Below are positions 1,093 through 42,075 of a DNA stretch of 64,000 nucleotides, one piece after another. The stretch is taken from contig DATGHL010000004.1 of assembly GCA_035308025.1 (NCBI GenBank), positions 2,678 through 66,677 of the forward strand, in the 5' to 3' direction. The notes beneath the pieces were generated by a model. The model did not search any database. It had not been told where the DNA came from and worked only from the letters and a program-made list of their open reading frames with translations. The DNA is from Candidatus Binataceae bacterium. Lineage in GTDB: Bacteria > Desulfobacterota > Binatia > Binatales > Binataceae. A program made the translations under genes and the position numbers. Every line of letters starts with the position of its first letter. Position 1 is the stretch's first letter.

Positions 1093-1123
1093 CCGGAGCC
1101 GCCAATAGCTTGACAGGAGGCAT

Positions 1124-2968
<1,845 letters not shown>

Positions 2969-4001
2969 TCAATCGGCGACCCGGGTCAGTTTTGCATCGG
3001 CACTAACACTCCGGGACAGTCGCGATATCGTTCGGCTCAAGTAGCACAGCCATCGGCTTTTGCCCTCACAGATCCGAGCGTGCAGTTTTCCCGCACTCGG
3101 CTCTTCCAGAAGTTCGATCGTCTCAGCAAGCGACCACCGTCCGAAGGTGAGCGCGGTTAGCGGTAAGCTTTCTAGTGTGTGCGGCGCCATGTGGCAAGAA
3201 TCACTGAATTCCCAAGTTGGACGTCACGGGTTCGATCCCCTTACAACCGGCAATGAAGAGCCCGCGCAGCTGAGAAACTCACCTCTGTTCTTCCGGCTGG
3301 TAGAGAGACTACTTCTTACGTCAATGCCTTTATCAAGGAGCTCCGCGAGAGCGATTCTGGGAGCAGAGCCGAGGTTTCACGGTTCCGTAATCTTTTCGAG
3401 GACTCCTATGACGGCATCTTGCGCCGTTCAACGGCCAAGCTTAATCACCGCATTTCTTTGCGCCTAGAGCATTGATGAGTTTGGCGGGGCGTCTGGAACC
3501 CGCGCACAATGGGCTAGGCGGTCAGCCACTGCACTGTTTGTCCCCGTCAGGGTGATGGTGATGCCGAGCTGTCACCAGAATCGAGAACTGCTGCTAAATG
3601 CCCGGATCTAGGAAAACTTTGAGCGGGCGACGGGCACGTTAGCTCCAAGGACATGCAATGCGGGGGAGTTACAGTTGGCTGGTTGTCAGGGGCGGAGTTC
3701 GCGAAAACCGTCGCAGCCGCGCGGCGCGGCGGACATCGTTCAGCCGCCCTGTTCAAGCGCTCGAAAATCGATTTCCAGTGCTCACATAGTGCCCACTTTG
3801 GTCCGCTGTCATAGGGGCTGGGATGATGTTCGCAAGGAGTGCAGTATTTTCGGCCCGATCTGGCCTCAGATTGTGTGGTAGAACTGGCCGCACAGAACTT
3901 GGGATCCAGTGCCGCAAGGCGTAGTGGTTCAAGTCCCCTCTCCTCGCATCGCCGGAAGATCGGGCTACTCCCTCTCAGACATTTCTGCGCATAATTCCCC
4001 G

Positions 4002-7315: not shown

Positions 7316-8176
7316 ATGAACGACGAATCGATCTTCGCGCATCATACCGCCGTGCTGGACGACGTGCGGCTGCATTACGTAATCGCGGGACATGGCGAGC
7401 CGGTGGTCTTGCTGCATGGATGGCCGCAGACCTGGTTCGAATGGCGCCGGATCATTCCAGCGCTGGCGCAGCGTTATACCGTGATCGCGCCCGACATGCG
7501 CGGGCTGGGGGATTCCTCGCGCCCGGTGAGCGGTTACGACAAGCGCACCGTCGCGGGCGACATCCGTCAACTCGTGCACAAGCTCGGCCTCGAGAAGATT
7601 TTCCTGGTCGGCCACGATTGGGGCGGTCCGGTCGCCTACGCCTATGCCTGCGCCAATCCGTCCGAAGTGCGTAAGCTGGTTATCCTCGATGTCACGATTC
7701 CCGGCGAGGCCTGGGAGAAATTCCCGCAGATCACGCGTCGCGGCGGCATCTGGCATCTCGCATTTCACAGCGTCCGCGACCTGCCCGAGGCGCTCGTGGC
7801 GGGCCGCGAGCGTGCTTACCTGTCGTGGTTCTATCGTTCTGCGGCTTACAATCCCTTGGCGATCACCGAGGCGGAGATCGACGAATACGGCCGCAGCTAT
7901 TCGGCCCCGGGGGCGATGCGCGCCGGTTTCGAATACTATCGCGCGATCTTTGCCGATATCGATCACAACAAGGAAAATGCAAAGACCAAGCTCAAGATGC
8001 CGGTGCTGGCGCTGGGCGGCGAGCGCGGCTTCCGTAACAGTCCGCTGCGCTCCATGCGCGAGCTGGCCGAGGATGTTCGCGGCGGCCTCATCGAGCGCGC
8101 CGGCCATTGGCTCGCCGAAGAACGTCCGGATTATCTGATTGAGCAGCTACTCGCCTTCTTTGCTGAACCCGCCTGA
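7316..8176 (+). CDS. alpha/beta hydrolase (epoxide hydrolase / haloalkane dehalogenase-like)
   Basis: 'VVLLHGWPQTWFEWRRIIPAL', 'GHDWGGPVA' (nucleophile elbow) and a C-terminal 'GHWLAEERP' are hallmarks of the epoxide-hydrolase-like alpha/beta hydrolase fold. Confidence 0.7.
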   Translation: MNDESIFAHHTAVLDDVRLHYVIAGHGEPVVLLHGWPQTWFEWRRIIPALAQRYTVIAPDMRGLGDSSRPVSGYDKRTVAGDIRQLVHKLGLEKIFLVGHDWGGPVAYAYACANPSEVRKLVILDVTIPGEAWEKFPQITRRGGIWHLAFHSVRDLPEALVAGRERAYLSWFYRSAAYNPLAITEAEIDEYGRSYSAPGAMRAGFEYYRAIFADIDHNKENAKTKLKMPVLALGGERGFRNSPLRSMRELAEDVRGGLIERAGHWLAEERPDYLIEQLLAFFAEPA

Positions 8177-8650
8177 GACACGGATCGCCAGTTCCGCACA
8201 GATTTTGTCCGCGATCGCGTGGGCCTCCTCCGAGACTTCTATGACCAGTTCGTCGCGCGGCTCCTCGAGCGTCTCGAACTGGCTACGCAAGAGTTGCGGA
8301 TCAAAGAAATGACGCTGCCGCGCCGTCACGCGTTTCGCGATTAGCTCGTATGATCCCTTCAGGTAGACAAGTTTTACTGCATCCCGATCAATAATTATCT
8401 GATCGCGATACGATTGCTTGAGCGCCGAACAGGCAATGACCGCCGAGCCGCCTCGGGATACTGATCGTTGAATCAGGGCTCGGACTGCCTCGAGCCACGG
8501 CTGACGATCGTCGTCCGTGAGCGGGATTCCGTGCGCCATCTTCTCCCGATTCGCCGCCGTATGAAGGTCATCGGCGTCGTGAAAGGACCAGCCAAGGCGG
8601 CACGCGACCAGCTCGCCGACCGTGGTTTTGCCGCTGCCCGCCACCCCCAT
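8147..8650 (-). CDS. gntK: gluconokinase (GntK/IdnK family), 5' end anomalous
   Basis: 'MGVAGSGKTTVGELVA...FHDADDLH...KM..GIPLTDDDRQPWL' matches gluconate kinases. The conserved beta1 strand 'KILVLMG' is encoded in-frame upstream of the annotated ATG with no canonical start codon. See findings. Confidence 0.65.
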   Translation of the reverse strand: MGVAGSGKTTVGELVACRLGWSFHDADDLHTAANREKMAHGIPLTDDDRQPWLEAVRALIQRSVSRGGSAVIACSALKQSYRDQIIIDRDAVKLVYLKGSYELIAKRVTARQRHFFDPQLLRSQFETLEEPRDELVIEVSEEAHAIADKICAELAIRVSGGFSKEGE

Positions 8651-8656
8651 CAGGAC

Positions 8657-8760
8657 TAAGATTTTTGACGCAGCTCGCAGACTCTTGACCTTGGCCGCGC
8701 GTCGCAGACTCCGCCGGCCCCTGTGCTCGCTGCGCGCGGCAACCGCGCTCCGCTAGTGTC
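8657..8760 (+). repeat. dispersed REP/MITE-like repeat, copy B
   Basis: 'tttgacgcagctcgcagactc...ctgtgctcgctgcgcgcggcaaccgcgctccgctagtgtc'. Sits between the convergent gntK and amidase genes. Confidence 0.65.
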
Positions 8761-10264
8761 ACGCGCCTTTTTGATAGGCGTCGGCGGCGCGCAGCACGGT
8801 CGCGTCGTCGCCGCTCTTCCCGACCAGCATCATGCCAATCGGTAGGCCCTTCGATACCGCGCAGGGCACGTTCATCGCGGGATGGCCCGTGACGTTGAAC
8901 TGCGCCGTACTCGAAACCATCCCGAGAGAGGCGGCCATGTACTCTTCGCGTGAGGCTCCAGGCAGCGGGATGCGCGGTGCCCGGGTCGTCATCGTCGGCA
9001 TCACCAGCAGATCGTAATCGCTCAGGACTTTGTCGTAAGCGGCCTTGAGCGCGCGAGCAAGATTCTGGGCTTTGGCATAGTAATGGCCGTGGTAACGGTC
9101 GCGCATGTAGAGGCCGAGCATCGCAAACAGTTTGGCGCTCTCGGAAACGTCGTCAGGATGGGTCCGCAGACCACGCGCGAAGGCGTCGAGCATCCCGGTT
9201 GCATAGTAACCCTTCCAGTTCGTGCCGAGCCCGCTGCCGGTGATCATTGTGGCGAGCGCGCCCTCACCGGCGATTCCCGTCCAGATCGGTGCGCCATCGC
9301 GATGCCACGGGATGGAGACGCGGTCGAGACGCGCCCCGAGCTTCTCGAAGGCCTGGGCCGCCTCCATCACGGCTTCATCGACCTCTTTTTCAGCACCCGG
9401 CGTGCCAAAGCCCTCCTGCACGAGAGCAAGGCGCAAGCCCTTTGCGTCACCCGTGAGCGCTTTCGTGTAGGCGGCACCCGCCAGATTGGCGCCCTGGCGC
9501 GGGTCGAGGCCGTCCGGCCCGGCGATCGCTTCGAGCATCAGGGCGCAATCCGCGGCGCTACGCGCCATCGGCCCGAGATGATCGAGAGTCATTTCGATCG
9601 GAAAGGCGCCGGTATAAGGCACTAACCCATACGTCGGCTTGAGCCCGTAAAGTCCGCACCAGGCGCTCGGAATACGGATCGATCCGCCTTGATCGCCGCC
9701 GATCGCCATGTCCACCGCGCCCGCCGCGACCAACGCGCCGCTTCCGCTCGACGAGCCGCCGGTGGTGCGCTCACTGTCGTGCGGGTTACGCACCGGACCG
9801 CTGTCCGCAGTGTGGCTGCCGCCCGAAAAACAGAGACTTTCGCAAACCGCCTTGCCCAGAATCGTTCCCCCAGCGTCAAGGATGCGCGTGACCACCGTGG
9901 CATCGATATTCGGCACGAAACCTTCGAGCAACCGCGTTCCATTCATCATCGGAACGCTGGCGACGCAGACGTTGTCTTTGATCGCGAAGGTCTTGCCGGC
10001 GAGCAGCCCGCTCGGCGCACCCTTGATTTCGCAGCGCCAGTACCAGGCGTTATGCACATTCTCCTCGGCCGTCGGCCGCCAGCCGCCATCGCGGGGATAC
10101 TTCACCGGAAGAGTCGGCTCGGCGAGCAGGTCCAAACGGTTCAGCGCCGAGATATAGGGCTCGAGCAGGCGGCGCGACGACTCGGTGTCTTGCGGCGACG
10201 GCCGAAACCCCAGCGTATTGGCGAGTCGGGTCAAATCTTCAGTTGAAGGCGCTTTAACCGGCAT
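8759..10264 (-). CDS. amidase (amidase-signature family)
   Basis: AS-family signature 'GGSSSGSGALVAAGAVDMAIGGDQGGSIRIPSAWCGLYGLKPT' with the Ser-cisSer-Lys context. Confidence 0.75.
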   Translation of the reverse strand: MPVKAPSTEDLTRLANTLGFRPSPQDTESSRRLLEPYISALNRLDLLAEPTLPVKYPRDGGWRPTAEENVHNAWYWRCEIKGAPSGLLAGKTFAIKDNVCVASVPMMNGTRLLEGFVPNIDATVVTRILDAGGTILGKAVCESLCFSGGSHTADSGPVRNPHDSERTTGGSSSGSGALVAAGAVDMAIGGDQGGSIRIPSAWCGLYGLKPTYGLVPYTGAFPIEMTLDHLGPMARSAADCALMLEAIAGPDGLDPRQGANLAGAAYTKALTGDAKGLRLALVQEGFGTPGAEKEVDEAVMEAAQAFEKLGARLDRVSIPWHRDGAPIWTGIAGEGALATMITGSGLGTNWKGYYATGMLDAFARGLRTHPDDVSESAKLFAMLGLYMRDRYHGHYYAKAQNLARALKAAYDKVLSDYDLLVMPTMTTRAPRIPLPGASREEYMAASLGMVSSTAQFNVTGHPAMNVPCAVSKGLPIGMMLVGKSGDDATVLRAADAYQKGA

Positions 10265-28911: not shown

Positions 28912-31596
28912 ATGCCCGCAGACCGCAAACTTTCCCGCTATCAGGCCAAGCGCGACTTCAACCAAACCGCCGAACCCAGCGGCGAAAATGCCGTCTCGCC
29001 CTCTCAGGTCCGCCGCTTCGTCATTCAGAAACACGCGGCCACCAGCCTGCACTATGATTTCCGTCTCGAACTCGACGGCGTGTTCAAGTCGTGGGCCGTC
29101 ACCAAAGGGCCTTCGGTCGATCCGCATGATAAACGCCTCGCGGTCGAGGTCGAAGATCATCCGCTCGATTACGGCGACTTCGAAGGGACTATTCCGAAGG
29201 GACAATATGGCGGCGGCTCGGTGCAGTTGTGGGATCGCGGCTATTGGCTGCCGCAAGAAAGTGATCCCGCCGCCGCAATCGATCACGGCGAACTGAAGTT
29301 CGCGCTCGAAGGTGAACGGCTGCACGGCGAATGGGTGCTCGTGCGGATCAAAAATCGCCGGCCAGGCGACAAAAAAAACAACTGGCTGCTGATCAAGCAT
29401 CGCGACGCCTTCGCGCGTGACGATGAGAGCCGTGCCCTCTTAGCCGAGGATCGCTCGATCGCCTCGGGCCGTTCGATGGCGGAGATCGCTGCCGGCAAAG
29501 GCGACGGCCCCCGGCCGTTTATGCTCGCCGCCAAGCTAAACGCGGCGCCCGACGCTGTCTGGAACTCAGACCGCGGCGCCGCCGCAGAACTGCGTGCATC
29601 CGCGGCGCCCAATGTAAGGTTCTCAACGATCCCGACGGCGGCATCGAGCAAACCTGACCTTCGCGGTTCCGAGCCGATGCCGGAGTTCATTGCGCCCGAG
29701 TTATGCAAAGTAATCGAGCGGCCACCTTCAGGTCTCGATTGGGTTCACGAAGTCAAGCTCGACGGCTATCGGATTCAGGCGCGGGTCGAAGAGAGTCGGG
29801 TGGTGCTACGCACTCGGAGAGGTCTCGATTGGACTAGCAAGTTCAGTGCAATTGCGCACGCTGCGGCCCGTCTGCCTGAAGGAATCTACGATGGTGAGGT
29901 AGTAGCCCTCAACCAGAAAGGCGCGCCGGACTTTGGTGCATTGCAGAATGCCCTTGCCGAGGGCAAAACCGGCGAGCTGATCTATTTTATTTTCGACTTG
30001 ATATTCCTCGAGGGCAACAACCTGCAACAGATTTCACTGCGCGAGCGCAAGACGACCTTGAAACGCATCATCGAAACTCTCGAGGGCGATTCGCCCATCC
30101 GCTACGTCGAACATTTCGATGCGTCAGGCGAATCGGTGTTAGAAACCGCTCGAGAAATGTCACTCGAAGGTATCGTCTCGAAGCGTTTGGGCGAGATCTA
30201 TCGTCCCGGCCAACGCGACTGGACTAAGACGAAGTGCCGCGCCGGCCAGGAAGTCGTGCTCGGCGGATGGACGAGCGAAGGCGGCCGCTTCCGTTCTCTG
30301 CTTGCAGGAGTCTACCACGACAAACATCTCACCTATGCCGGACGGATCGGCACCGGCTTCGGCGAAGACGTGGTCAGGCAGATTCTTCCGCGGCTCAAAG
30401 AACTCACGACTGCGCGGAACCCATTCGAGGGTCAGAACGCACCGCGCAGTCAAAGCGGTATACATTGGCTGAAGCCCGAGTTAGTTGCGCAAATCGAGTT
30501 CGCCGGGTGGACCGCCGAGGGCATCGTGCGGGCAGGCGCGTTCAAAGGACTGCGCGAAGACAAACCCGCGTCTGAAGTGATTGCCGAACGCTCGGCGCCT
30601 GTACAGGAAGCAGACGCCGCCAAGCCCGTGCCTAAAACGAAAAGCTCAAACACCTTCGCATCGCCCAAACTCAAGACCGGCGCCAGCGCCAGCGTGATGG
30701 GTGTTGCGATTTCTCACCCGGACAAAGCGATGTGGCCCGATGCTGGTGACGGAAAGCCCGTAACCAAGCTCGACCTCGCGAATTACTACGAGGCTGTCGG
30801 CGACAGCCTCATTGAATACATAAATGGGCGTCCGTGCTCGATCGTGCGCGCACCTGACGGAATCCACAGCGAACATTTTTTTCAGCGCCATGCGATGCCG
30901 GGAATGTCCCAGTTGCTCTCTCTCGTGAGAGTCTCCGATGATCATCAGCCATACCTGCAGATCGATTCGGTCGAAGGACTGATCGCTCTTGCCCAGCTCG
31001 GCGCGCTGGAACTGCATCCGTGGAATTGCGCTGCGGGCGCGCCCGAGGAGCCGGGCCGCCTCGTCTTTGACCTCGACCCGGCGCCGGACCTCGATTTTCG
31101 CGCCGTCATCGAGTGCGCGCGCGAACTCCGTGAGCGCCTCAACTCTCTCGGCTTGACGAGCTTTTGTAAAACCACTGGCGGCAAAGGACTGCACGTCGTG
31201 TCGCCGCTCTCGCCTGGAAAAAAGGGTAAGCTTGATTGGCCGGTGGCGAAGGCCTTCGCTCGCGAAGTCGTCGCGCAAATGGCTGCCGACAGCCCGGCCC
31301 GCTACCTCATCACGATGGCTAAGAAAGACCGGCACGGTAAAGTTTTTCTTGACTATCTGCGCAACGATCGTATGGCGACAGCCGTTGCCGTTCTTTCGCC
31401 ACGTGCACGTGCGGGCGCGCCGGTTTCAATGCCGCTCGACTGGAGTCAAGTCAGAACGGGACTCGAGCCCACGCGTTTCACCGTCCGCACCGCTCTTTCG
31501 CTGCTCGCCAAGAGCGATCCGTGGAAGGATTATAGTAAGTCGGGGCGCTCATTGGAGAACGCAATCAAGCTCTTAGGGCAAAACACAATCGACTGA
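28912..31596 (+). CDS. ligD: DNA ligase D (phosphoesterase - ligase - polymerase/primase)
   Basis: PE domain '[22 protein letters not shown]', adenylation motif I '[13 protein letters not shown]', polymerase-domain motif '[11 protein letters not shown]'. Confidence 0.9.
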
Positions 31597-31662: not shown

Positions 31663-32235
31663 ATGAACGCGGAACAATACATTGACCTGAGTTGCCATCC
31701 GTCGAAACCCGCTGAGTCGGTCCGCACTGTTCAGGTGCTCGTTCGCCGATCAACCAACGCCGAACTTCAGATGACCTTCCGCGTCGACGGCGATATTGAT
31801 CGGATTCGCATTCCTTCGTCCAGCGCACCGCGTATCGCTACCCAACTCTGGCAACACACCTGCTTCGAAGCTTTCGCCGCGATCGCGGGACAACCGGCCT
31901 ACCACGAGTTTAATTTCGCTCCGTCGGGAGAGTGGGCCGTCTATGCCTTCTCCGCCTATCGCAACGGCAGCCTTCTTGAGAACCAAAACCTGCGGCCGCA
32001 GATCGCTGTGCGCGCCACTGGCAGTCGGCTTGAACTCACAAGCCTTGTCCGACTCGATGCCCTACCTGCCTTCCACCCGCGTGTTTCCCTCCATCTCGGG
32101 CTCTCCGCGGTCATCGAGGCGAGCGACGGGCTCTCGTATTGGGCGCTTCGCCATCCAGCCGATAAACCGGACTTTCACGACGCCGCCGGCTTCGCCCTGC
32201 TGCTCGACCCACAAGCACAAATAACCGACGCCTGA
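31663..32235 (+). CDS. hypothetical protein (possibly DOMON/CBM9-like beta-sandwich)
   Basis: 190 aa. 'WQHTCFEAF...YHEFNFAPSGEW.VYAF..YRNG' weakly recalls DOMON/CBM9-like proteins. GC-rich like the core genome. Confidence 0.3.
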   Translation: MNAEQYIDLSCHPSKPAESVRTVQVLVRRSTNAELQMTFRVDGDIDRIRIPSSSAPRIATQLWQHTCFEAFAAIAGQPAYHEFNFAPSGEWAVYAFSAYRNGSLLENQNLRPQIAVRATGSRLELTSLVRLDALPAFHPRVSLHLGLSAVIEASDGLSYWALRHPADKPDFHDAAGFALLLDPQAQITDA

Positions 32236-32269
32236 ACCCGTCGGCAGCACGTGCTAAGCTGGTGATCCG

Positions 32270-32998
32270 ATGGAACCGAACCGGCCACAAGGTCTTAGCC
32301 GGCGGCGTGTCCGGCAACTCCTATCGAACACGCAGTCTTACCATTCAGCCGCCAGCCGCATTGAGGTTCTATCCCGCCACTTCCTTGGACATCCCTACAA
32401 GCCAAATCCCTTGATTGGATCCGCCGATGAATCGGAAGTCTTCACCGCTTCATTAGACGGATTCGACTGTGTCACCTATATTGAGACAATTTTGGCGCTC
32501 GCACGCGCTGCGACCGTTGATGACTTCATCGAAGGGCTGCGCAAGATCCGGTATCAACACGGACGCATCCAGTGGGAACAGCGCAATCACTATATGACGT
32601 TCTGGATTCGTAACAACGTGCGCGAAGGGATAATCAGCCCGGTCGCGACGCCGGCTATTCCGGTACTCAGCCGGGAGCGCCTTCTCAATGTCGTACCCGG
32701 ACTCGCTTCAAAGCTGACTCGCGTGAAATGTGTACCAAAGCTGGAAGTGATGCGGCGCGCAGCCTACCTGCGCAGCGGTGATCTGATTTTCTTTGCCTCC
32801 ACACGCAAACATCTTGATGTGTTTCATACCGGCATCATCGTAAGCGATGGCAAATATCCACTCATGCGTCACGCTTCGCGCAGCCAGGGATTTGTCGTTG
32901 AACAGAACTTGAGTGAGTTTCTTAAGGCCAATCGGATGGCCGGTGTCATCGTGGTGCGGCCTCGGGAGATTAAGAAGCGAATTGCAATTACTAATTAG
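32270..32998 (+). CDS. DUF1460-like protein (predicted papain-fold / amidase-like Cys hydrolase)
   Basis: 'FDCVTYIETILALARA' with a conserved Cys, characteristic of DUF1460. First gene of the low-GC island. Confidence 0.45.
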   Translation: MEPNRPQGLSRRRVRQLLSNTQSYHSAASRIEVLSRHFLGHPYKPNPLIGSADESEVFTASLDGFDCVTYIETILALARAATVDDFIEGLRKIRYQHGRIQWEQRNHYMTFWIRNNVREGIISPVATPAIPVLSRERLLNVVPGLASKLTRVKCVPKLEVMRRAAYLRSGDLIFFASTRKHLDVFHTGIIVSDGKYPLMRHASRSQGFVVEQNLSEFLKANRMAGVIVVRPREIKKRIAITN

Positions 32999-33064
32999 GC
33001 CGACACTTTTCTCGCTGAGGCGAATCCTCGTACGGAAGCGATCGCTTGGAGCGACGGGGTAAAT

Positions 33065-34339
33065 GTGAACATCGTATATCCGCTCGACTATTCAACCGCG
33101 AGTATTCGAGAATTATTCGATGACGCCGATTCCGATGTCCTTTTTTTGCGGGATCCGCGTGTAGACATCGAACTCGGACCGCGCATGCTCGAGCGAATAA
33201 CGCAGGTGATCCGTGACACCGGCAGCGGCTGGGTTTATGCCGACGGAGTAAGCCAACCCCGTATCGATTATCAAACCGGCAGCATCCGCGACGGTTTTGA
33301 CTTCGGCCCGCTAGTTGGTGTCTCGGTTCAAGCCGCGCGTAACGCCGGGATCGATAGCGCCTGGCGATGGGGAGGACTATACGACCTGCGCCTAAGACTT
33401 TCGGAAACACACGCTATCGTGCGAATTCCCGAACCGTTGTACAGCCAGTCGATCGTTGACGCACGGCCGACGGGGGAGAAACAATTCGATTATGTAGATC
33501 CGCGCAATCGCGACTACCAAATTGAAATGGAGACTATCGCGACGGCGCATCTGAAGCGAATCGGCGCCTGGTTACCGCCCCACTTCGAGAGAGTTCCAGC
33601 CGCTGAGGAGGCCTTTCCGGTAAAGGCCAGCGTCGTAATACCAGTGCGGAATCGCGAGCGGACAATTCTCGACGCCGTTCAGAGCGCCCTCGGCCAGCGC
33701 GCTGATTTCGAGTTCAATGTGCTCGTCGTCGATAACCATTCGACCGATCGGACAACGGAGCTTTTGCGAGGCATCAGTGATTCGCGGATTAGACGCATCA
33801 TCCCCGAACGCCGCGATTTGGGCATCGGCGGATGCTGGAACGAGGCGATTTATTCCAAAGACTGCGGCCAATACGTTATTCAGCTTGATTCCGACGATCT
33901 ATACATCAATGAAAACGTTCTTCGCCGGATCGTCGGACAACTTGAAGCGGGACCTTACGCAATGGTTATAGGCTCTTATACTATGGTTGATTTTTCATTG
34001 AGGGAGATTCCGCCTGGGCTTATCAACCATGGCGAGTGGAGTCGCGAGAACGGCAGAAACAATGCGCTCCGGGTTAATGGGCTTGGCGCGCCCCGCGCAT
34101 TTAACACTTCGGTTCTGCGCCGTATCGGATTTCCGAATGTGAGCTATGGCGAGGATTACGCCGTGGCGCTGCGCCTGAGCCGTGATTACGAGATAGGCCG
34201 GATCTACGACTCCGTTTATCTTTGCCGCCGATGGGAAGGCAATAGCGATAGCGCCCTGCCGGTCGAGATTGCGAATCGATACGATTCGTACAAGGACTGG
34301 CTCCGCACCGTCGAGATCCAGGCGCGGATGCGCAGATGA
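33065..34339 (+). CDS. family 2 glycosyltransferase with about 190-aa N-terminal domain of unknown function
   Basis: GT-A signature 'ASVVIPVRNRERTILDAVQSALGQ....FNVLVVDNHSTDRT' and a DxD motif 'QLDSDDLY'. Stop overlaps the next gene's start. Confidence 0.7.
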   Translation: MNIVYPLDYSTASIRELFDDADSDVLFLRDPRVDIELGPRMLERITQVIRDTGSGWVYADGVSQPRIDYQTGSIRDGFDFGPLVGVSVQAARNAGIDSAWRWGGLYDLRLRLSETHAIVRIPEPLYSQSIVDARPTGEKQFDYVDPRNRDYQIEMETIATAHLKRIGAWLPPHFERVPAAEEAFPVKASVVIPVRNRERTILDAVQSALGQRADFEFNVLVVDNHSTDRTTELLRGISDSRIRRIIPERRDLGIGGCWNEAIYSKDCGQYVIQLDSDDLYINENVLRRIVGQLEAGPYAMVIGSYTMVDFSLREIPPGLINHGEWSRENGRNNALRVNGLGAPRAFNTSVLRRIGFPNVSYGEDYAVALRLSRDYEIGRIYDSVYLCRRWEGNSDSALPVEIANRYDSYKDWLRTVEIQARMRR

Positions 34340-35229
34340 TCCGCAAAGTGGACGAACTCTTTAAGCGGCAGGTGCGAGCATGGCCGCTGCTGGCGCGAGG
34401 ACTGCAAGGCCTTGCGCAGGCGAAGACCCGGTGGGTGCGCATCGACTGGTTCGACATCTTCATCCTACACATACCCCATCGCCTGGGCAGTACAACAGCT
34501 TCTGTCAACCGCGACGCAGTCGCAAAACGTCCATGTTTTCTATGTGCATGCAATCTGCCTCCAGAGGAAGAGGGCGTGGAGTTTGATGACGAGCTCACGA
34601 TCTACTGTAATCCGTTCCCGATCGTGGACCGTCACCTGACGATCGCGCACCGCGAGCATGTTTTGCAGCGCATCGCGAACCAATTCGGAAAAATGCTGGA
34701 CCTCGCCGCCGCCCTGCCCGGATATTTCGTCATCTACAATGGTCCAGAATGCGGAGCCTCCGCGCCAGACCACATGCACTTTCAGGCGGGCGCCCGAACA
34801 TTACTTCCGATCGCGAAGGAGACTGCCGGGCACGCTACTATTAGTGCACCGCGCTATGCAACAAATGTACTGCTACTTCGTGGCCGCGATCGATCTGTAC
34901 TTATCGATCAAATGGATCGCGCTATCGAGTTACTGGCGGAAACAACCGGCAAACAAGCGGAGCCCTTGGTCAACATCGCAGTCTTTCATGAAAGCGGTGA
35001 ATGGGTGATGTATCTGTTCCCGCGCGGAAAGCATCGGCCAGAGGTTTTTCATACGGGCGAACTTACCGTGAGCCCCGCGGCGATTGATTTGTGCGGAATC
35101 TTTGTCGTGCCGCTGGCACGCGATTTCGAGAGAATCACTAGCGAGGCGATAGCTGCAATCTTGCGCGAGGTCACTTTGCCTGACGCTCAGTTTCAGGAAA
35201 TTGTCGCGAAACTGGAGGGACGGCATTGA
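34336..35229 (+). CDS. HIT-superfamily-like nucleotidyltransferase/phosphorylase (DUF4922 / GDP-hexose phosphorylase-like, HxHxQ motif)
   Basis: 'PDHMHFQAG' is an H-phi-H-phi-Q HIT/GalT-type motif. There is an upstream Cys-rich segment 'CFLCACNLPP'. Translationally coupled to the GT2 (ATGA overlap) and to the SpoIID gene. Confidence 0.45.
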   Translation: MIRKVDELFKRQVRAWPLLARGLQGLAQAKTRWVRIDWFDIFILHIPHRLGSTTASVNRDAVAKRPCFLCACNLPPEEEGVEFDDELTIYCNPFPIVDRHLTIAHREHVLQRIANQFGKMLDLAAALPGYFVIYNGPECGASAPDHMHFQAGARTLLPIAKETAGHATISAPRYATNVLLLRGRDRSVLIDQMDRAIELLAETTGKQAEPLVNIAVFHESGEWVMYLFPRGKHRPEVFHTGELTVSPAAIDLCGIFVVPLARDFERITSEAIAAILREVTLPDAQFQEIVAKLEGRH

Positions 35230-36446
35230 ACGTATCTGTAGGACTAATTGAGGGACAGTCTGCTGTTGAGGTTGAATTGACGGGCACGTTCGCCGATACG
35301 TACGGCAAGCCGTACCTCCCCAGGCGGTACAGCTTCACTTCTGAAGTGACGCTTAGTCCGTCGGACTCAGCGTCGTGCGCGTTTGCGCTGGACGACGTCA
35401 CGATCGGAATTGGATTTCATTGGGAACGCAAGGAGCGCCAGGTTTTTCGTGGGGCGTTTCGCCTCGTGCGACGAGAAGCCGGCCTGACGGTGATTAACGA
35501 CGTTGCGCTCGAAGAGTACGTCACCAGCGTCATATCCTCCGAGATGAGCGCGTCCTGTCCTCTTGAACTGCTGAAAGCTCATGCGGTGATTTCCCGCAGC
35601 TGGCTGTGGTTTCCGAAAGTAAACCCCTCTTGCATTGAGAGCCGGCAGAGTGAGGCTCTCGATCCTCACGAAATCCGTCGCTGGTACGGCCGTGAATCTC
35701 ATCCGGATTTCGACGTTTGCGCCGACGACCATTGCCAGCGCTATCAGGGCATCACGAAAGTGTTCTCTCCGGCAGTAGCTGACGCGGTTCGCGCGACAGC
35801 CGGCGAGTTTCTCCGTTACCGTGGTGCTGTCTGCGACGCCCGGTTTTCCAAGTCCTGCGGCGGAATAACCGAACGCTACGCGACCGCCTGGGAAGATAAA
35901 CACTTTCCCTATCTCGAGTCTGTGTACGACGGCCCTGCCCAATCGTGCTCTGGCGCTTCGGAGGCATGGATACGCTCGAATCCGGCAGCCTATTGCAATA
36001 CCGACAATGCGGATCTGCTTTTACGCGTCCTCCCGGGGTTCGATCAGGAGACCCGCGATTTCTACCGCTGGCGCGTCGAGTATAACCCCGAAGAACTCGC
36101 CGCTCTGATCAGCTCGCAGCTCGGCGTGGACCTTGGCCCGATTCGCTCTATGCAGCCCCTCGCGCGCGGACCGTCAGGCCGAATCGATCGGCTGAAGATC
36201 ACTGGGGAGCGCGACTACCTCATCATCGGTAAAGAGCTAGAAATTCGCCGCGCTTTATCGCGCACGCATCTTTACAGCTCTGCATTCGTCGTCGACAAAG
36301 AGTCTGGCCGCTTTGTCTTGCGAGGATCCGGATGGGGGCACGGCGTCGGCTTATGCCAGATCGGCGCGGCAGTCATGGCACATGAGGGCAAGACTTACAC
36401 AGAAATCCTGCAGCACTACTATCTTGGAACCACTGTCAGCGTCTGA
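35226..36446 (+). CDS. SpoIID/LytB-domain protein (peptidoglycan lytic-transglycosylase / amidase-enhancer family)
   Basis: 'LEEYVTSVISSEMSASCPLELLKAHAVISRSW' and the C-terminal 'GSGWGHGVGLCQIGAAVMAHEGKTYTEILQHYY' match the SpoIID/LytB domain. Confidence 0.7.
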   Translation: MNVSVGLIEGQSAVEVELTGTFADTYGKPYLPRRYSFTSEVTLSPSDSASCAFALDDVTIGIGFHWERKERQVFRGAFRLVRREAGLTVINDVALEEYVTSVISSEMSASCPLELLKAHAVISRSWLWFPKVNPSCIESRQSEALDPHEIRRWYGRESHPDFDVCADDHCQRYQGITKVFSPAVADAVRATAGEFLRYRGAVCDARFSKSCGGITERYATAWEDKHFPYLESVYDGPAQSCSGASEAWIRSNPAAYCNTDNADLLLRVLPGFDQETRDFYRWRVEYNPEELAALISSQLGVDLGPIRSMQPLARGPSGRIDRLKITGERDYLIIGKELEIRRALSRTHLYSSAFVVDKESGRFVLRGSGWGHGVGLCQIGAAVMAHEGKTYTEILQHYYLGTTVSV

Positions 36447-36666
36447 CGGGAGGTCAACAACAAGATTTCACATCTCATAGTGGCGCCGAAAGAACGGAAT
36501 TTTTTCAGATTCTCTCGCCATCCTTTTTCTAAGCAAGCGCACAGGCACGTGGCGATGGGGGCAATTATCCCCTTGATGGCGGTGAGCCGTCATGTCAGGG
36601 TGGCAGCAATCGATACGCTTTTACGGCGGCTCCTCCGCTGTCGGCGTGGGAAAGAGCTAGCCACGA

Positions 36667-37401
36667 TTGCGCGAATACGAGCTCAATTGCTCGATGTATC
36701 TATACGCGAGCAGGGCTGATGCGAATCGGGGCGTACAGACTGGCGGAAGCGGATTCTTCTTCGGGATTCCGATGAACGAGTACTCCAGCCATATCTACGC
36801 CGTTAGTAATTGGCACGTCGTGCAAAGCCATCCGGTCATTCGCGTAAACACACATTACGGGGATTCACTTGTCTTAGAATTAAGAACCAGCGATTGGTTT
36901 CGGCATCCAGACGGTGAGACCGACCTCGCCGTTGCACCTGTGGGGCATCCATTCTGGGCAGACCTTAATGTGCTTCTTCTTGGTCGTGAAACCCTTCTTT
37001 CTCCGGAGATCATCTCTCGATTTAAGATCGGTGTCGGCGACGACTTGTTTGTCGTTGGTCGCTTCATAGATCGTGATGGCGTACAGCGCAATCAACCAAC
37101 AGTTCGATTTGGCATGATCGCGCAACTACCAATCCCTCACCAACCAATCCGAACCGAGGTTGGATACCAGGATGCTTTTCTAGCCGAAATTCGATCTGTC
37201 TCAGGATTTAGCGGGTCTCCGATATTCGCACTACTACCGCCCCATCGCGACACCTCCCTTTCCAGAGAGGAACGGCTCAAAGCCTTTAGCGATCTGGACG
37301 ATAACGGCTTACAGCGAAACAGAACGGTTCTCATGGGAATTGACTGCGGGCATATGCAATATCCAGAACCGGATGCTGTTTTCGCAGAAAGTGCGCGATG
37401 A
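36667..37401 (+). CDS. trypsin-like serine peptidase (S1/chymotrypsin fold, Trypsin_2-like)
   Basis: Catalytic triad context: 'SNWHVV' (His), 'GETDLAV' (Asp), 'SGFSGSPIF' (Ser). No signal peptide is evident. Confidence 0.55.
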   Translation: MREYELNCSMYLYASRADANRGVQTGGSGFFFGIPMNEYSSHIYAVSNWHVVQSHPVIRVNTHYGDSLVLELRTSDWFRHPDGETDLAVAPVGHPFWADLNVLLLGRETLLSPEIISRFKIGVGDDLFVVGRFIDRDGVQRNQPTVRFGMIAQLPIPHQPIRTEVGYQDAFLAEIRSVSGFSGSPIFALLPPHRDTSLSREERLKAFSDLDDNGLQRNRTVLMGIDCGHMQYPEPDAVFAESAR

Positions 37402-37456
37402 GCACGGCGGCAAACGGTTGCGCCCAACGAAACTATGGGCGAACGTAAACACTGGA

Positions 37457-37714
37457 ATGGCTATCGTGATCGGCGCATGGAAGCTGGACGAGTTGCTCAA
37501 CAACCCAGTGTTGGTAGAAATGCGAGAAAAAGAAAAAGCCGCGGCAAAGAAATACACAAAGCTGGATTCATCCACCCGGCCCCGCTTGCAAAAAACGTTA
37601 GCTCCGAACGCTGCGGATCGGATTGATATTCCTATTCCGACTGAACGCGAGGTGTTGGACGTATTTAAGAAAGCCACGCGGAAGCGGCCATCTAGGCAGA
37701 AACCTTCTTCGTGA
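37457..37714 (+). CDS. small hypothetical protein (basic C-terminus); 3' end truncated by or overlapping the IS1595 end
   Basis: ORF 37340..37714 in another frame, overlapping the protease stop. Internal Met at 37457. Confidence 0.2.
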   Translation: MAIVIGAWKLDELLNNPVLVEMREKEKAAAKKYTKLDSSTRPRLQKTLAPNAADRIDIPIPTEREVLDVFKKATRKRPSRQKPSS

Positions 37715-38660
37715 TCTGCTTCGTGAGCGCGTCGAACATATTGTGTCGTCCAAGGTTCGGTCGGCGATTGAACCGAAAAGCGTACTCGTTCAGATAGCTT
37801 TGCGGATAATGCGAACCGACATTGTGATAGACACCACGAATCCCGTTTTTTATGAGGCTCCAGAAGCCCTCCATGGTGTTCACGTGTGCATCGCCCGAGA
37901 CATAGACCTTGGTCGCAAGATGGACGCGCTTGTGCTGTAGCCAAGTGGCTCCAGCGGATTATAGACCGCGTATTCGTCGGTAAAGACCATGCTCTTCGGC
38001 ATTATTCGCTCAGTCACGTGCGGAAGCAGGGTTGCAGCTTGGGTGGTTCGGAACGACCTTTGCCACAACTCTGCCCTTGCGCTCTACCATGCCGAAGACG
38101 GCGGTCTTGCCGACCCCGCCGGTGCCGAGATGTTTCCGCTTGTTGGCGTGTTTGTTCTTTTCCAACCCGCCGAATGCGCTTTCGTCCATCTCAATCTTGC
38201 CAGACAGTTTTGGCCCGTCATCTTCATTCAGCATCGAACGAATCTGTTTGCACATACGCCACGCGCATTTGTAGGTAACGCCGATTTCCCGCTCAAGCTG
38301 CTTGGCGCTAATCCCGCATCGAGTAGAGGCCATCAAGTACATGGCGTAAAACCAGAGTTTCAGCGAAGTAGCCGAATCCTGAAAGATCGTCCCGCTCATT
38401 GGGTGTTCGTGATGACCGCAATTCTGGCACGAGTAGGAAGGTCGCTTGCTGTCGCGATGATGCTTTGTGACGGCTTTGCATTTGGGGCAGAAGATGCCAT
38501 CGGGATAGAGCCATTCGACGAGTTTCTGAAGACAAGCTGCATCGTCTGGATAATTTCGCTCGAAATCCATGAGCGAGTAAGTACTGTCGGACGCCCCGGA
38601 ACGTATCGGCTTATTGCGGTTGACCTTGCTCATGTCGAACATAGTACTAAAGGCGCGCAC
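37692..38660 (-). mobile_element. IS1595-family insertion sequence with frameshifted transposase
   Basis: ORF 38010..38660 has an N-terminal zinc ribbon 'CPKCKAVTKHH...CQNCGHHE' and a DDE region. Continuation 'VFTDEYAVYNPL' (37880..38068) and C-terminus 'FWSLIK...NEYAFRFNRR' (37692..37883) are each in a different frame. Confidence 0.7.
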
Positions 38661-38695
38661 CTACGTCAAAGGGATAGTTACAAAAGGACCCGGTC

Positions 38696-38929
38696 GTGAC
38701 CGCGAGGAGGGTCGCCACCAAAACCGTGAAGAGCGCACGGCGGCCGCCGCGGGCGGCATCAGGTTCAGACCCAGGGAAACTGGTTTGCCGTTACTGCGGC
38801 AGTGATGATCTCGCCCCGTCGTTCATCAAGCGCCGCGACGCCCGCTGTCGCACCTGTTTCAAACAACGTTACGGGTCGGCAACGCGTGCCAAGTCAGCGA
38901 AGTCTCCTAAGGCCAACGCCGCTAAATAG
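38696..38929 (+). CDS. small basic zinc-ribbon protein (questionable)
   Basis: 'CRYCGSDDL...CRTC' four-Cys arrangement in a Lys/Arg-rich 77 aa ORF with a non-ATG start. Overlaps the presumed IS1595 end. Confidence 0.2.
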   Translation: MTARRVATKTVKSARRPPRAASGSDPGKLVCRYCGSDDLAPSFIKRRDARCRTCFKQRYGSATRAKSAKSPKANAAK

Positions 38930-39563
38930 TTCTAGCCCCATCGCACGGACCTGGCGCCGGCCTCCGATCAGAAGGCCGGCGCCAGTCTACTTGGCGTGCA
39001 GGGTCGGCCGCTTGGTCTCACGTTGGTCGACCAACGCAGTCCAGCAATTTGGAATCAAAAGGCAACAACCAAGGCCCCTTTTTAGAAGGAAGCCGCTCGC
39101 CAGCGTAATTCACTGGGACAAGTGGAGCGATTGACCGGATTTAACGGCAACACGGATTGCGCAGCGGGCAAGCTCTCAGCGGGTATCGAAAGCATCACTG
39201 GATCGTGCGGACCGACGAAATAATCACCAGCGCTGGTATCCCTTATAGCCCGCGCAATCGTAAGGCCCCAGCTGGCAAGTGGACGCTTGAAGGGAAAACT
39301 CCTGCTCTGGGTTGCTATCCACCCAGCCGCAGCGACCCTATCTCAGTTGCGTTACGACAAACGGGAAGGACGTGGCGCTTCGGCCGACCCGCCGAAATCA
39401 CCTGAAGGGACCCGGCGTCACTGCCGGCAGAGATCAATCGCCAAAGTCGCTCGCCGGGCGCAGAGTTCGGGACCCGCTCCGGGTTCTTTGCGGGCGAATA
39501 AGCCCGCATAAATGCGAAGATTTCGAGCGTTTTCACGGAGAATCTACAAATCCTGAGACTGGG

Positions 39564-39655
39564 TGGCGGAGAGGGGGGGATTCGAACCCCCGAGACCCTT
39601 GCGAGCCTACACGCGTTCCAGGCGTGCGCCTTAAACCGGGCTCGGCCACCTCTCC
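39564..39655 (-). tRNA. tRNA-Ser (anticodon GGA), type II with long variable arm, CCA encoded
   Basis: Reverse complement reads GGAGAGG-UG-GCCGAGCCCGGUUUAAGGC-G-CACGC-CUGGAAC-GCGUG-UAGGCUCGCAAGGGUCUC-GGGGG-UUCGAAU-CCCCC-CCUCUCC-G-CCA. All stems pair and the discriminator is G. The 3' end faces the low-GC island. Confidence 0.9.
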
Positions 39656-39735
39656 GCAATGGGGCTTCAGTATGCCATCGGATGAATTCGACTTGCCAGT
39701 ATGCCAACGCGGAGCGACCGCACGCTGCGGATAAG

Positions 39736-40588: not shown

Positions 40589-40925
40589 CGCGCTCTTGCA
40601 CGATCGGGCGCGTCGATGTTTCACGTGAAACAGCTCCACAAGTTTTTGCGCGTCGACGGGCAAAGTGAAGCTGTTCCCCACCTAGCCGTGCTTGATGGTC
40701 ACGCTCTTGCAGGAGCGCACACCCGATGTTTCGCGTGAAACCTTTTTTTCACCGCCGGGCAGCGCAGCGCTCCATTGTCATGGCCTTTGCCCGATCGGAC
40801 GCGGGCGAATGTTTCACGCGAAACATTTTTGTCACCTTTGTTTCACTGCCCGGGCCGAGCGCCGCCCGGCGGTCGCCAGCCTTTGCTTGATCGTACCAAA
40901 TGTTTCACGCGAAACATCTTGTTAA
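40585..40925. repeat. array of four palindromes (TGTTTCACGYGAAACA), each preceded by a TTGCnYGATCG motif, spaced 84-109 bp
   Basis: Palindromes at ~40617-40632 (perfect, TGTTTCACGTGAAACA), 40727-40741, 40808-40827 (AATGTTTCACGCGAAACATT) and 40899-40917. Extra TTTTTCAC half-sites are scattered from 40441 to 40850. Confidence 0.6.
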
Positions 40926-40999
40926 CAGGTTTGTGTAGGGAGCGGTGCATAGTGCAGGTTTTCACCCTTGACGTGATCTTCCATAAACGGCGCCCGGGT

Positions 41000-41860
41000 C
41001 TAATTCTGCGCGCAAAAAAGAATCGTCTCGTTCGAGGTGCGCAGTTTGCCGTCGGGCTGGACGAAGGCGCGAGCGGCGTTGGTCACTGCCGCGATAATCT
41101 GGTCGCGCAACGCCGGCGTTTGCCGTTCGAGCAGGGCGCGAAACGGCGCCGCGACGTCGCTGCGGAACTGCGCGAGCGCTTCGGGCGCGGCGAACTCGAA
41201 AACTACCTGCAGGCGTTTCACTTGCACGTCTTTGAAGCCCGCCGCCGCAAGCGCGTGAGTGAGAATCGACGGGTCGGCAAGCCGCAGCGGTTCGAGCGCG
41301 TCGAACGGCGGCGAGGGCAGGCCCGCGAGCTTGCGCACTTGATCGGTGCCCAGCGTGATCATCGGGACCTTGTCGCGCGTCGACCAGACCGCGGTCGCGA
41401 GGCGGGTGCCGGGTTTCATCCGGCTGCGGATACCGGTCAAGGCGCGATCGATGTCGGGCATGAACATAAAGCCCCAGCGGCAGACCACGGCGTCGAAGTC
41501 GCGCTCGCTGAGCGCGAGCGCTTCGGCGTCGCTTTCCTTGAACTCAAGGTTGTTGAGGCCAAGGGCCGCGGCGCGCTCCCGCGCGATCGCGAGCATTCCG
41601 GCGGATTGATCGGTGGCGATCACGCGGCCCGTCGCGCCGACCCGTCGCGCCGCGGTCACCGCCGGCTCACCGGTGCCGGTGGCGATATCGAGCACGCGGG
41701 CGCCGGGCCTCACGCCCGCCAGTTCGACGAGGCGGTCGCTGACGTGCTGTGCCGCCTGCTCGAAGATCGGCCACCATTTTTTCCAGCCTGCGGCGGCGGC
41801 GTCCCAATCGCGTTTCTGCTCGCTCTTCAAGCGTGTAAAATCAGCGTTCTGATCAGTCAT
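41000..41860 (-). CDS. class I SAM-dependent methyltransferase
   Basis: 'ARVLDIATGTGEPAV' motif I. About 286 aa. Confidence 0.7.
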   Translation of the reverse strand: MTDQNADFTRLKSEQKRDWDAAAAGWKKWWPIFEQAAQHVSDRLVELAGVRPGARVLDIATGTGEPAVTAARRVGATGRVIATDQSAGMLAIARERAAALGLNNLEFKESDAEALALSERDFDAVVCRWGFMFMPDIDRALTGIRSRMKPGTRLATAVWSTRDKVPMITLGTDQVRKLAGLPSPPFDALEPLRLADPSILTHALAAAGFKDVQVKRLQVVFEFAAPEALAQFRSDVAAPFRALLERQTPALRDQIIAAVTNAARAFVQPDGKLRTSNETILFCAQN

Positions 41861-42075
41861 TTTCCAATACTCCGTCGCGGCAATGCGCCTTACGTTTCGG
41901 CAACCTCAGAATGACGTGAACGGGCAGAACATGACAATCGCAATTTTGCGGCGGGAATGTCTGCGCAGAAACCGGTGCCGGCTTCGCTGGCGCGAAGCTG
42001 TCCGAAGTCCTTTCGACTGCGTTCGCGCTGCTCACTGCGCTCAGGATGACAAAAAGAGAGGGCGTTCGTGCACGG

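Follow-up and report, generated by a model that had tools for sequence, protein, structure and literature searches.

A glycosyltransferase-DUF4922-SpoIID operon beside a tRNA-Ser gene of Binataceae: a candidate cytoplasmic pathway for peptidoglycan turnover fragments

A patch of low GC (guanine plus cytosine) content that stops at the 3′ end of a tRNA gene raises two questions: whether it was acquired by horizontal transfer, and what its genes do. Such a patch lies in the 64-kb stretch of DNA that was analyzed here as a whole (hereafter the window) and that comes from a metagenome-assembled genome of Candidatus Binataceae (Binatota), between the ligD gene and a tRNA-Ser(GGA) gene. The initial annotation had read it as a single horizontally acquired island carrying a four-gene module for the modification or remodelling of cell-wall glycan. 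However, two separate entities lie between ligD and the tRNA gene: an operon of five genes (31663-36446) and a 3.1-kb stretch located between the last of these genes and the tRNA gene (36447-39563). We estimate at roughly 55% the probability that the former is a vertically maintained operon of Binataceae whose products process fragments from peptidoglycan turnover in the cytoplasm. We infer that the substrate of this pathway would be the peptide-free disaccharide of N-acetylglucosamine (GlcNAc) and (anhydro) N-acetylmuramic acid (MurNAc), handled through nucleoside diphosphate (NDP)-sugar and sugar-1-phosphate chemistry. The copy found in the window is an ordinary member of a widespread operon, which would be an uncharacterised variant of peptidoglycan recycling; as the initial annotation had presumed, no biochemical characterisation of the four-gene combination was found in the literature.

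The five genes are co-directional (plus strand) and closely spaced or overlapping. They encode, in this order, a DOMON/CBM9-like putative carbohydrate-binding protein (31663-32235, 190 aa; NCBI name, AlphaFold2 (AF2) model and Foldseek), an AmiA-like (DUF1460) cysteine amidase of NlpC/P60 type (32270-32998, 242 aa; PF07313), a glycosyltransferase (GT) of family GT2 with a GT-A domain (33065-34339, 424 aa; PF00535), a DUF4922 and GDPGP1_C protein resembling nucleotidyltransferases and phosphorylases of the HIT/GalT branch (34336-35229, 297 aa; PF16269 and PF26216) and a SpoIID/LytB-family protein (35226-36446, 406 aa; PF08486 and TIGR02669). The conserved unit begins one gene before the span described initially, at the DOMON-like gene (31663), and ends at 36446. 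Hidden Markov model searches support the four domain assignments made from the sequence alone (DUF1460, GT2, DUF4922 and SpoIID), with intact catalytic motifs, and the reported tight packing and partial translational coupling are reflected in the start-stop overlaps of the GT2 and DUF4922 genes (ATGA) and of the DUF4922 and SpoIID-like genes (TTGA, with GGAGGG just 5′). The GT2 gene starts with GTG, with GGGG upstream. Promoter and terminator scans over 31.4-39.7 kb gave nothing above shuffled expectation. Two public contigs (L002 and L003) carry this region of the window. The calls deposited on the identical contig L002 shorten the AmiA-like protein to 168 aa, without the catalytic Cys67 (8157-8663), and the GT2 to 384 aa (8850-10004), but cross-phylum homology supports the 242-aa and 424-aa forms as the probable ones.

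The gene set recurs far beyond the window. A degenerate-pattern scan based on a diverse DUF4922 alignment, with one genome per GTDB species, revealed at least 593 relatives; 80 loci were kept and viewed over 10 kb on each side of the match, and these scan loci together with the Binataceae contig L001 provide nine other Binataceae loci. In the loci where DUF4922 is flanked by 1.4 kb or more on each side, the GT2, DUF4922 and SpoIID-like genes (hereafter the trio) are collinear and adjacent in 8/8 Binataceae, 15/17 Acidobacteriota and 31/38 Bacteroidota or other loci, and the AmiA-like gene is next to the trio in 8/8, 15/17 and 2/37 of them, respectively. The four-gene set thus does co-occur in other genomes, with the order of the window conserved in Binataceae and Acidobacteriota. 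Furthermore, the 150 representatives that rank best in the DUF4922 family include three GT2-DUF4922 fusions (P0159, P0248 and P0239) and two DUF4922-SpoIID fusions (P0264 and P0143); locus L063 carries another fusion of the latter kind. Collinearity across phyla and gene fusions therefore provide strong evidence, at the level of sequence comparison, that the glycosyltransferase, the DUF4922 protein and the SpoIID-like protein would act together.

In the nine other Binataceae loci, the cassette genes follow the order of the window as far as the contigs reach (one contig begins inside GT2), with identities of 65-87%. In L001, an adenosine-deaminase-family gene (7595-8530, PF00962) is located between the AmiA and GT2 genes, and a gap of about 1 kb at the same place in L006 suggests the same insertion; it possibly hints at the nucleotide involved. 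Two contigs carry a label that does not fit their cassette: the cassette proteins of a 2.4-kb contig labelled Terriglobales (L009) fit Binataceae (76-82% identity), and those of a contig labelled Heliomicrobium (L021) have identities that fit Blastocatellia, so that both contigs are probably mis-binned.

Does the operon belong to an island? The drop in base composition reported from about 32.2 to 39.56 kb is real and significant. GC content is 0.51-0.60 in 500-nt steps over about 31.3-39.5 kb, with 0.567 for the cassette (31663-36446) and 0.546 for 36447-39563, compared to a mean of 0.618 for the whole window; GC content at third codon positions (GC3) is 0.593-0.660 in the cassette genes versus 0.741±0.055 in the 38 other open reading frames (ORFs) of the window (z -1.5 to -2.7; Mann-Whitney p=3.5e-4). 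It is still lower (0.50-0.52) in a trypsin-like ORF and in an ORF called across an insertion sequence (IS) remnant, which both lie in the 3.1-kb stretch. The flanks had been given as 65-68% GC, which is correct for the right one (41-51 kb) but not for the left one (0.59-0.64), where ligD (28912-31596), just 5′ of the cassette, has a GC content of 0.597. Other features listed initially are indeed present: the region abuts the 3′ end of the tRNA-Ser(GGA) gene (39564-39655, minus strand), which faces it, a decayed IS1595 copy with a truncated and split transposase is detected by Pfam and NCBIfam, and no integrase-like ORF appears in Pfam, NCBIfam or precomputed annotations.

These features could suggest that the segment from 32.2 to 39.6 kb came recently from a donor of lower GC content and was inserted at the 3′ end of the tRNA-Ser gene by an integrase that has since been lost. 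The significant dip in GC and GC3, the adjacent tRNA end, the IS1595 remnant with its genome-specific defence-like ORF and the variable flanks of the cassette among Binataceae genomes would all agree with such an event, which we nevertheless regard as quite improbable. The cassette is present in all nine other Binataceae loci at 72-87% protein identity, whereas none of these loci (0/9) has a tRNA gene within 10 kb. Protein identity declines by clade, from Binataceae (78-87%) to Holophagae and Thermoanaerobaculia (66-71%), other Acidobacteriota (56-61%) and Bacteroidota (48-50%). A search for att-like repeats found no second copy of the tRNA-Ser(GGA) 3′ end within the 64-kb window. More generally, the marks of a tRNA island were not found: the window shows neither an integrase nor a repeat of the tRNA 3′ end, and the nine other Binataceae loci show no presence/absence polymorphism. 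Outside Binataceae, the GC content of the cassette tracks that of the host, from 0.43 in Bacteroides to 0.72 in Holophagales. Lastly, the GC3 of the cassette is below that of its flanks in 9/9 other Binataceae loci (by -0.02 to -0.15). Since this dip is common to all of them, the low GC content is a family-wide property of a native operon in Binataceae and not the mark of a recent insertion in this genome. The claim of horizontally acquired DNA at the tRNA-Ser gene does not hold for the cassette; it holds only for 36447-39563, which alone looks recently foreign. When genomes are annotated, low GC content next to a tRNA gene should therefore be read with care, since it can belong to a conserved native operon that adjoins a small true insertion.

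An older transfer has to be weighed separately. The four-gene operon could have moved between a Holophagae-like lineage of Acidobacteriota and the ancestor of Binataceae and then been inherited, the GC dip being a lasting trace of that history or of low expression. In favor of this, the GT2 of Binataceae is 66-71% identical to those of Holophagae and Thermoanaerobaculia, while Holophagae compared with Terriglobia or Blastocatellia share 56-63%, and the order AmiA-GT2-DUF4922-SpoIID is the same in Binataceae and Acidobacteriota. However, the comparison consists of pairwise identities, and the cassettes of Holophagales have a GC content of 72%, so that such a donor leaves the low-GC dip unexplained. 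We view this transfer as possible but less probable than vertical maintenance alone; it would be compatible with the function that we favor. Concerning mobility, a plasmid search with DUF4922 gave matches only in four Bacteroidales records labelled as plasmids, which are typed as non-mobilizable and one of which is 1.77 Mb long. In Binataceae, the flanks of the cassette are swapped between L005 and L012, what is upstream in either genome matching what is downstream in the other, so that the cassette or its surroundings appear to be inverted between the two.

The function proposed for the operon depends first on its enzymes. The AmiA-like protein matches PF07313 (E 6.6e-39, 133.9 bits for a cut-off of 27) over positions 2-200 of 202, and its matches in PDB are 2p1g and the AmiA structures of Bacteroides uniformis (4h4j, 4q5k and 4q68). 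The previously noted DCVTYIE motif is present and contains Cys67. HMMER aligns the motifs around this residue (FDCVTY) and around His186 (VFHTGI) with DCTTFVE and LDVSHMGI of 2p1g, respectively; His201 (MRHAS), in the same aligned block, was paired by eye with the His of LLHASS. The Cys-His-His triad of AmiA/DUF1460-type enzymes (PMC10318531) is thus present (Cys67, His186 and His201). The protein therefore resembles AmiA of B. uniformis by its Pfam family and by its active site, but it differs from it by the lack of signal peptide, as do most acidobacterial orthologues; a Prevotellaceae orthologue does carry one. As for its specificity, AmiA of B. uniformis reportedly acts only on GlcNAc-1,6-anhydroMurNAc-peptides.

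The GT2 domain (PF00535, E 6e-20, 72.3 bits for a cut-off of 23.3) covers residues 189-336 of 424. The protein has both the DxD metal/nucleotide motif and an acidic catalytic base, in LDSDD (274-278) and YGEDY (361-365), with D275, D277, D278, E363 and D364 invariant across phyla. It scores only 15-40 bits against named GT2 equivalogs of NCBIfam (TuaG, PglI, EpsE, WcaA and others), whose cut-offs are 180-600 bits. Its N-terminal domain of about 185 aa (33065-33619) is conserved from Binatota to Bacteroidota but has no Pfam match at E<=1 and no meaningful PDB match in a profile search. A profile-profile comparison of this domain with the GT-A half of the same protein gave a probability of 19%, and it is possibly a degenerate internal duplication of that half. 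The full-length protein, N-terminal domain included, is 44-62% identical across phyla. The AF2 model of GT2 has a predicted local distance difference test (pLDDT) score of 42.8, for an alignment of 29 close Binataceae homologues that are all about 80% identical.

The DUF4922 protein matches PF16269 (E 2.2e-49, 167.6 bits for a cut-off of 23.6), and the precomputed annotations of the identical protein and of all homologues include PF26216 (GDPGP1_C). The HxHxQ motif reported initially was found as H146-M-H148-F-Q150. Across 26 diverse homologues, no change is seen at C67, C70, H100, H108, H146, H148 and Q150, so that the protein has both the HxHxQ nucleotidyl-His motif and the CxxC...H Zn-type motif of GDPGP1/VTC2, Apa2 and GalT. 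A single-sequence search of PDB gave no match, but the family profile matches the yeast diadenosine tetraphosphate (Ap4A) phosphorylase Apa2 (4i5t, E 2.6e-5), with HxHxQ aligned to DHKHLQ, and weak matches to GalT are found in NCBIfam. The protein probably groups with GDP-hexose phosphorylases and Ap4A phosphorylase; GDPGP1, which carries a DUF4922 domain, converts GDP-glucose and phosphate into glucose-1-phosphate and GDP (PMC7041677). Unlike these enzymes, the bacterial clade, which is distant from them as the E value to Apa2 indicates, is always paired with a glycosyltransferase. Three GNAT-DUF4922 fusions (P0201, P0215 and P0262, among the same 150 representatives) recall the association of acetyltransferase and nucleotidyltransferase in GlmU, an analogy that hints at a possible link with nucleotide sugars.

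The SpoIID-like protein matches PF08486 (E 1.7e-23, 83.5 bits for a cut-off of 23) and TIGR02669 (E 4.5e-51, 174.4 bits for a cut-off of 83.3), and remains under the cut-off of the sporulation SpoIID equivalog TIGR02870 (136.7 bits for 234.75). Its PDB matches are 4rwr, 5i1t and 5txu. Glu106 (SSEM) aligns with the catalytic Glu of ASEM/AGEM in 4rwr and 5i1t, and H159, C165, H169 and C170 correspond to the Zn motif H134, C140, H145 and C146 of the Clostridioides difficile protein, whose catalytic Glu is E101 (PMC6221140); Glu106 and the H/C/HC residues are invariant across phyla. The protein shares with the SpoIID-SpoIIP and LytB systems the SpoIID fold, the catalytic Glu and the H-C-HC Zn motif, and an AmiA-like gene is present in the cassette just as SpoIID needs an amidase partner. 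However, it differs from them by the absence of anchor or signal peptide in the window protein and its orthologues, by an additional N-terminal domain of about 85 aa, by an inserted CNT...DQET.DF(Y/F)RW segment and by its operon linkage or fusion to cytoplasmic enzymes. Hydropathy inspection (rather than a dedicated predictor) detected no signal peptide or transmembrane-grade hydrophobic segment in the five window proteins, and no signal peptide or anchor in eight orthologues of the SpoIID-like protein from four clades. In Holophagae, Terriglobia, Blastocatellia, Bacteroides, Sunxiuqinia, Cytophagales and Ignavibacteria, these proteins start directly with a "(E)P.I.VG(I/L)" domain, and those of different phyla share long invariant blocks. 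Since characterised SpoIID/LytB proteins are extracytoplasmic and these carry no signal peptide, they probably form a distinct subfamily.

The cell-wall module described in the initial annotation is thus self-contained and tied to peptidoglycan, but its role in wall remodelling is not supported. That hypothesis would have a SpoIID-type enzyme and its amidase cut the sacculus outside the membrane, with GT2 modifying wall glycan or a lipid intermediate. The SpoIID family membership, with catalytic Glu and Zn motif, and the parallel with SpoIIP/SpoIID, where the amidase acts before SpoIID (PMC6221140), speak for it. However, signal peptides and transmembrane helices are absent from the window proteins, and from the SpoIID-like proteins in the phyla checked; GT2 is soluble, without membrane domain; and the SpoIID-like protein can be fused to DUF4922, a domain whose chemistry requires nucleotides and phosphate. 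We judge such remodelling to be very unlikely. The lack of signal peptides and transmembrane segments, together with the DUF4922-SpoIID fusions, which point to the cytoplasm since relatives of DUF4922 use nucleotides and phosphate, therefore suggests a module that would act in the cytoplasm on imported fragments, and not on the wall.

The DOMON-like protein, called DOMON-like domain-containing protein by NCBI, has no Pfam or NCBIfam match. Its AF2 model (pLDDT 79.7) is a CBM9/DOMON β-sandwich, for which the best Foldseek matches are the putative carbohydrate-binding protein BACUNI_03838 of B. uniformis (4jpq, TM 0.64) and CBM9 1i82. Its gene is upstream of the AmiA gene in all eight other Binataceae loci that reach that far (65-77% identity), and no homologue was found at E<=1e-5 among the surveyed loci outside Binataceae. 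The protein would be a sugar-binding accessory specific to Binataceae. Neither it nor the DUF4922 protein matches a defence system in PADLOC.

A link with peptidoglycan recycling is suggested by the neighbours of the trio in other phyla. In Bacteroidota, AmpG-like permease, NamZ and MurQ genes usually come after the trio. By contrast, a census of 27 Binatota and Acidobacteriota loci revealed no gene that recurs besides the AmiA-like gene and the trio: NDK, NUDIX and DUF4159 genes are each near the cassette in at most 5/27 loci, which are probably not phylogenetically independent. For Bacteroidota and Ignavibacteria, two genes on each side of the trio were considered in 35 loci. These 115 ORFs include 25 major facilitator superfamily (MFS) transporters, 13 NamZ exo-muramidases and 10 fusions of GH9 and CE4 domains. 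The best match of the MFS proteins in two tested loci is the AmpG family (TIGR00901, E 1.4e-52, below cut-off), and MurQ is above cut-off in a tested Bacteroidota locus. The GH9-CelD_N-CE4 fusion (822 aa in L027, 12447-14915) is directly 3′ of the SpoIID-like gene in this locus and in nine other Bacteroidales loci; the best match of its CE4 domain is PdaA, a de-N-acetylase of MurNAc. The fusion protein may first deacetylate peptidoglycan sugars and then cleave them, and as a neighbour it points to amino-sugar chemistry.

The operon of Bacteroides graminisolvens contains, in order, genes for NamZ, SSF, a Golvesin_C protein, Metallophos+PQQ, GT2, DUF4922 and SpoIID, then AmpG-like, NamZ, FAD-oxidase, MurT-like, MurK-like and MurQ proteins, and the RefSeq names of the corresponding Parabacteroides genes are "xanthan lyase - glycosyltransferase family A - DUF4922". 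An operon of the same kind has been studied in Tannerella forsythia. Tanf_08345-08385 ("xanthan lyase", gtf, gtf, lytB, ampG, ybbC/namZ1, murT, murK and murQ) are co-transcribed, activated by GppX and needed for growth on muropeptides (PMC5388701); Tanf_08350 and Tanf_08355 were published as being of unknown function and Tanf_08360 as a putative lytic transglycosylase (bioRxiv 10.1101/2021.12.02.470905). This species is devoid of AnmK, and its route for anhydroMurNAc was published as unexplained (PMC7670621). The succession of GT, second "gtf" and SpoIID/LytB is that of Bacteroidota loci, including B. graminisolvens. By contrast, the trio of the window is joined to a predicted cytoplasmic AmiA-like amidase and to a DOMON-like protein and has no permease, NamZ or MurQ gene within 10 kb. 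The cassette of the window is therefore another arrangement around the same trio and not an operon of T. forsythia type.

The steps of the pathway that we propose would be as follows. Anhydromuropeptides (GlcNAc-1,6-anhydroMurNAc-peptides) would enter the cytoplasm, where the AmiA-like cysteine amidase would take off the stem peptide, like AmiA of B. uniformis. The SpoIID-like enzyme would then bind the peptide-free disaccharide and act at the anomeric or 1,6-anhydro center of MurNAc, either by running the lytic transglycosylase reaction backwards onto an acceptor or by trimming short denuded oligomers. Canonical SpoIID releases peptide-free GlcNAc-anhydroMurNAc from denuded glycan, on which an amidase must have acted first (PMC6221140); since this would also be the product of the AmiA-like amidase, a cytoplasmic enzyme with the SpoIID fold would be suited to bind it. 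GT2 and DUF4922 proteins would interconvert a β-linked N-acetylhexosamine, its NDP-sugar and its sugar-1-phosphate. Through this two-enzyme phosphorolysis or re-activation, the sugars would rejoin the nucleotide-sugar pool, with neither AnmK nor NagZ involved.

Like the known AmpG-AmpD-NagZ-AnmK-MurQ and AmgK-MurU routes, this pathway would combine import, an anhydro-specific amidase and the return of sugars to UDP-sugar pools. However, the cassette is devoid of AmpD, NagZ, AnmK and MurU, its amidase is of the cysteine NlpC/P60 type, its nucleotide enzyme is HIT/GalT-like and not MurU-like, and its GT2 and SpoIID-like proteins have no counterpart in these routes. A further likeness to AmgK-MurU is an AmgK-like kinase beside one DUF4922-SpoIID fusion: contig L086 (JGI metagenome, 766-4488) encodes a fusion protein of 824 aa followed by an APH-family kinase, for which the best NCBIfam matches are to AmgK, an anomeric kinase of MurNAc and GlcNAc (E 4e-15, below cut-off). 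More speculatively, and in our opinion with rather low probability, the trio would be a so far unrecognised branch of peptidoglycan recycling that saves ATP and takes the place of AnmK and NagZ: the cytoplasmic enzyme with the lytic transglycosylase fold would use the 1,6-anhydro bond of GlcNAc-anhydroMurNAc as an activated glycosyl donor and open the ring by the reverse reaction, and the glycosyltransferase and the HIT-type NDP-sugar phosphorylase would turn β-linked amino sugars directly into NDP-sugars or sugar-1-phosphates. If true, this would answer how bacteria devoid of AnmK, such as T. forsythia, use anhydroMurNAc.

Several points weigh against the proposed pathway. Canonical SpoIID/LytB proteins work outside the membrane. 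All substrates and reaction directions of the trio are read from genomic context. The cassettes of Binatota and Acidobacteriota have no permease or other recycling gene within 10 kb. AmiA seems to be secreted in Bacteroidota, and its partnership with the trio therefore appears to be clade-specific. Some Bacteroidota loci carry GT2 and DUF4922 genes but no adjacent SpoIID gene. In Ignavibacteria (L044 7274-10930, Ignavibacteriaceae; L052 and L073), the genes are SpoIID, GT4 (PF00534) and DUF4922, GT4 being a non-homologous replacement of GT2; with a retaining-type GT4 in the place of an inverting GT2, one fixed chemistry may not apply everywhere. As regards vertical maintenance, the flanks of the cassette vary among most Binataceae genomes, none of the nine other loci shares a flanking gene with the 64-kb window, and the cassette may have moved as a unit within the family. 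It is gene order and annotation, rather than compared sequences, that suggest the orthology of Tanf_08350-08360 to the trio, and Tanf_08345-08385 were first discussed as related to glycosylation (PMC5388701).

This last point, together with the effect of the T. forsythia regulator on S-layer glycoproteins (PMC5388701), could mean that the trio serves another amino-sugar glycan (protein or S-layer glycosylation, exopolysaccharide or chito-oligosaccharides) and that its peptidoglycan neighbours are coincidental. The GT2 domain does resemble many polysaccharide GT2s, and the GH9+CE4 neighbours could act on chito-oligomers. However, the only consistent partners are peptidoglycan-specific, namely AmiA/DUF1460 in two phyla and AmpG-like, NamZ and MurQ proteins in a third one, SpoIID is a peptidoglycan-specific fold, and the cassettes contain no flippase, polymerase, lipid-carrier or priming transferase gene. 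Another glycan is thus improbable, and a role in peptidoglycan recycling is preferred.

Outside a few Proteobacteria and Firmicutes, the recycling of peptidoglycan is, to our knowledge, not well mapped. The three-enzyme core is present in at least 593 species-level genomes, including Binatota from soil, Acidobacteriota and Bacteroidota from gut and mouth, and in Bacteroidota it is embedded, without assigned reaction, in operons for muropeptide uptake and MurNAc catabolism. If confirmed, the pathway would include a cytoplasmic member of the SpoIID lytic transglycosylase family and a bacterial relative of the GDP-hexose phosphorylase of the vitamin C pathway that is always paired with a glycosyltransferase, both of which would be new. 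The cassette is also a candidate for the use of anhydroMurNAc without AnmK, including in the periodontal pathogen T. forsythia, and the handling of muropeptides by gut Bacteroides bears on NOD1/NOD2 signalling.

The stretch beside the tRNA gene (36447-39563) consists of a trypsin-like ORF and the IS1595 transposase, which is both truncated and split, as well as non-coding DNA. The trypsin-like peptidase ORF (36667-37401, plus strand; PF13365 E 3.9e-5, below cut-off), a candidate for anti-phage defence that is not part of the module, matches PDC-S45 in PADLOC (E 3e-11) and, weakly, Lamassu LmuA (3.5e-4); its GC3 is 0.50, and among the surveyed loci it was found only in the contigs of this genome (L002 and L003). 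The ORF at 37340-37714 (plus strand) is possibly its frameshifted continuation. The decayed IS1595-family transposase (37692-38660, minus strand; PF12760, PF12762 and NF033547), equally foreign to the module, comprises a part with the PF12760 zinc ribbon and positions 1-60 of the 153 of PF12762 (38010-38660; NF033547 E 2e-28) and a second DDE fragment of 60 aa near 37692-37874, called on the identical contig. The tRNA-Ser(GGA) gene itself, whose 3′ end faces this remnant, was detected by ARAGORN and Rfam (RF00005, 55 bits). The trypsin-like ORF and the IS1595 remnant look like a small defence/IS islet specific to this genome; together with the tRNA gene, they would represent a small insertion unrelated to the operon. 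The plasmid search gave no match for the remnant (36.4-39.6 kb).

On the other side of the tRNA gene, four copies of a palindrome of about 20 nt (AATGTTTCACGCGAAACATTTT), spaced by 83-110 nt, lie at 40615-40920, over the start of the ORF 40775-41914. Judging from their arrangement, they look like an array of operator sites for a dimeric regulator.

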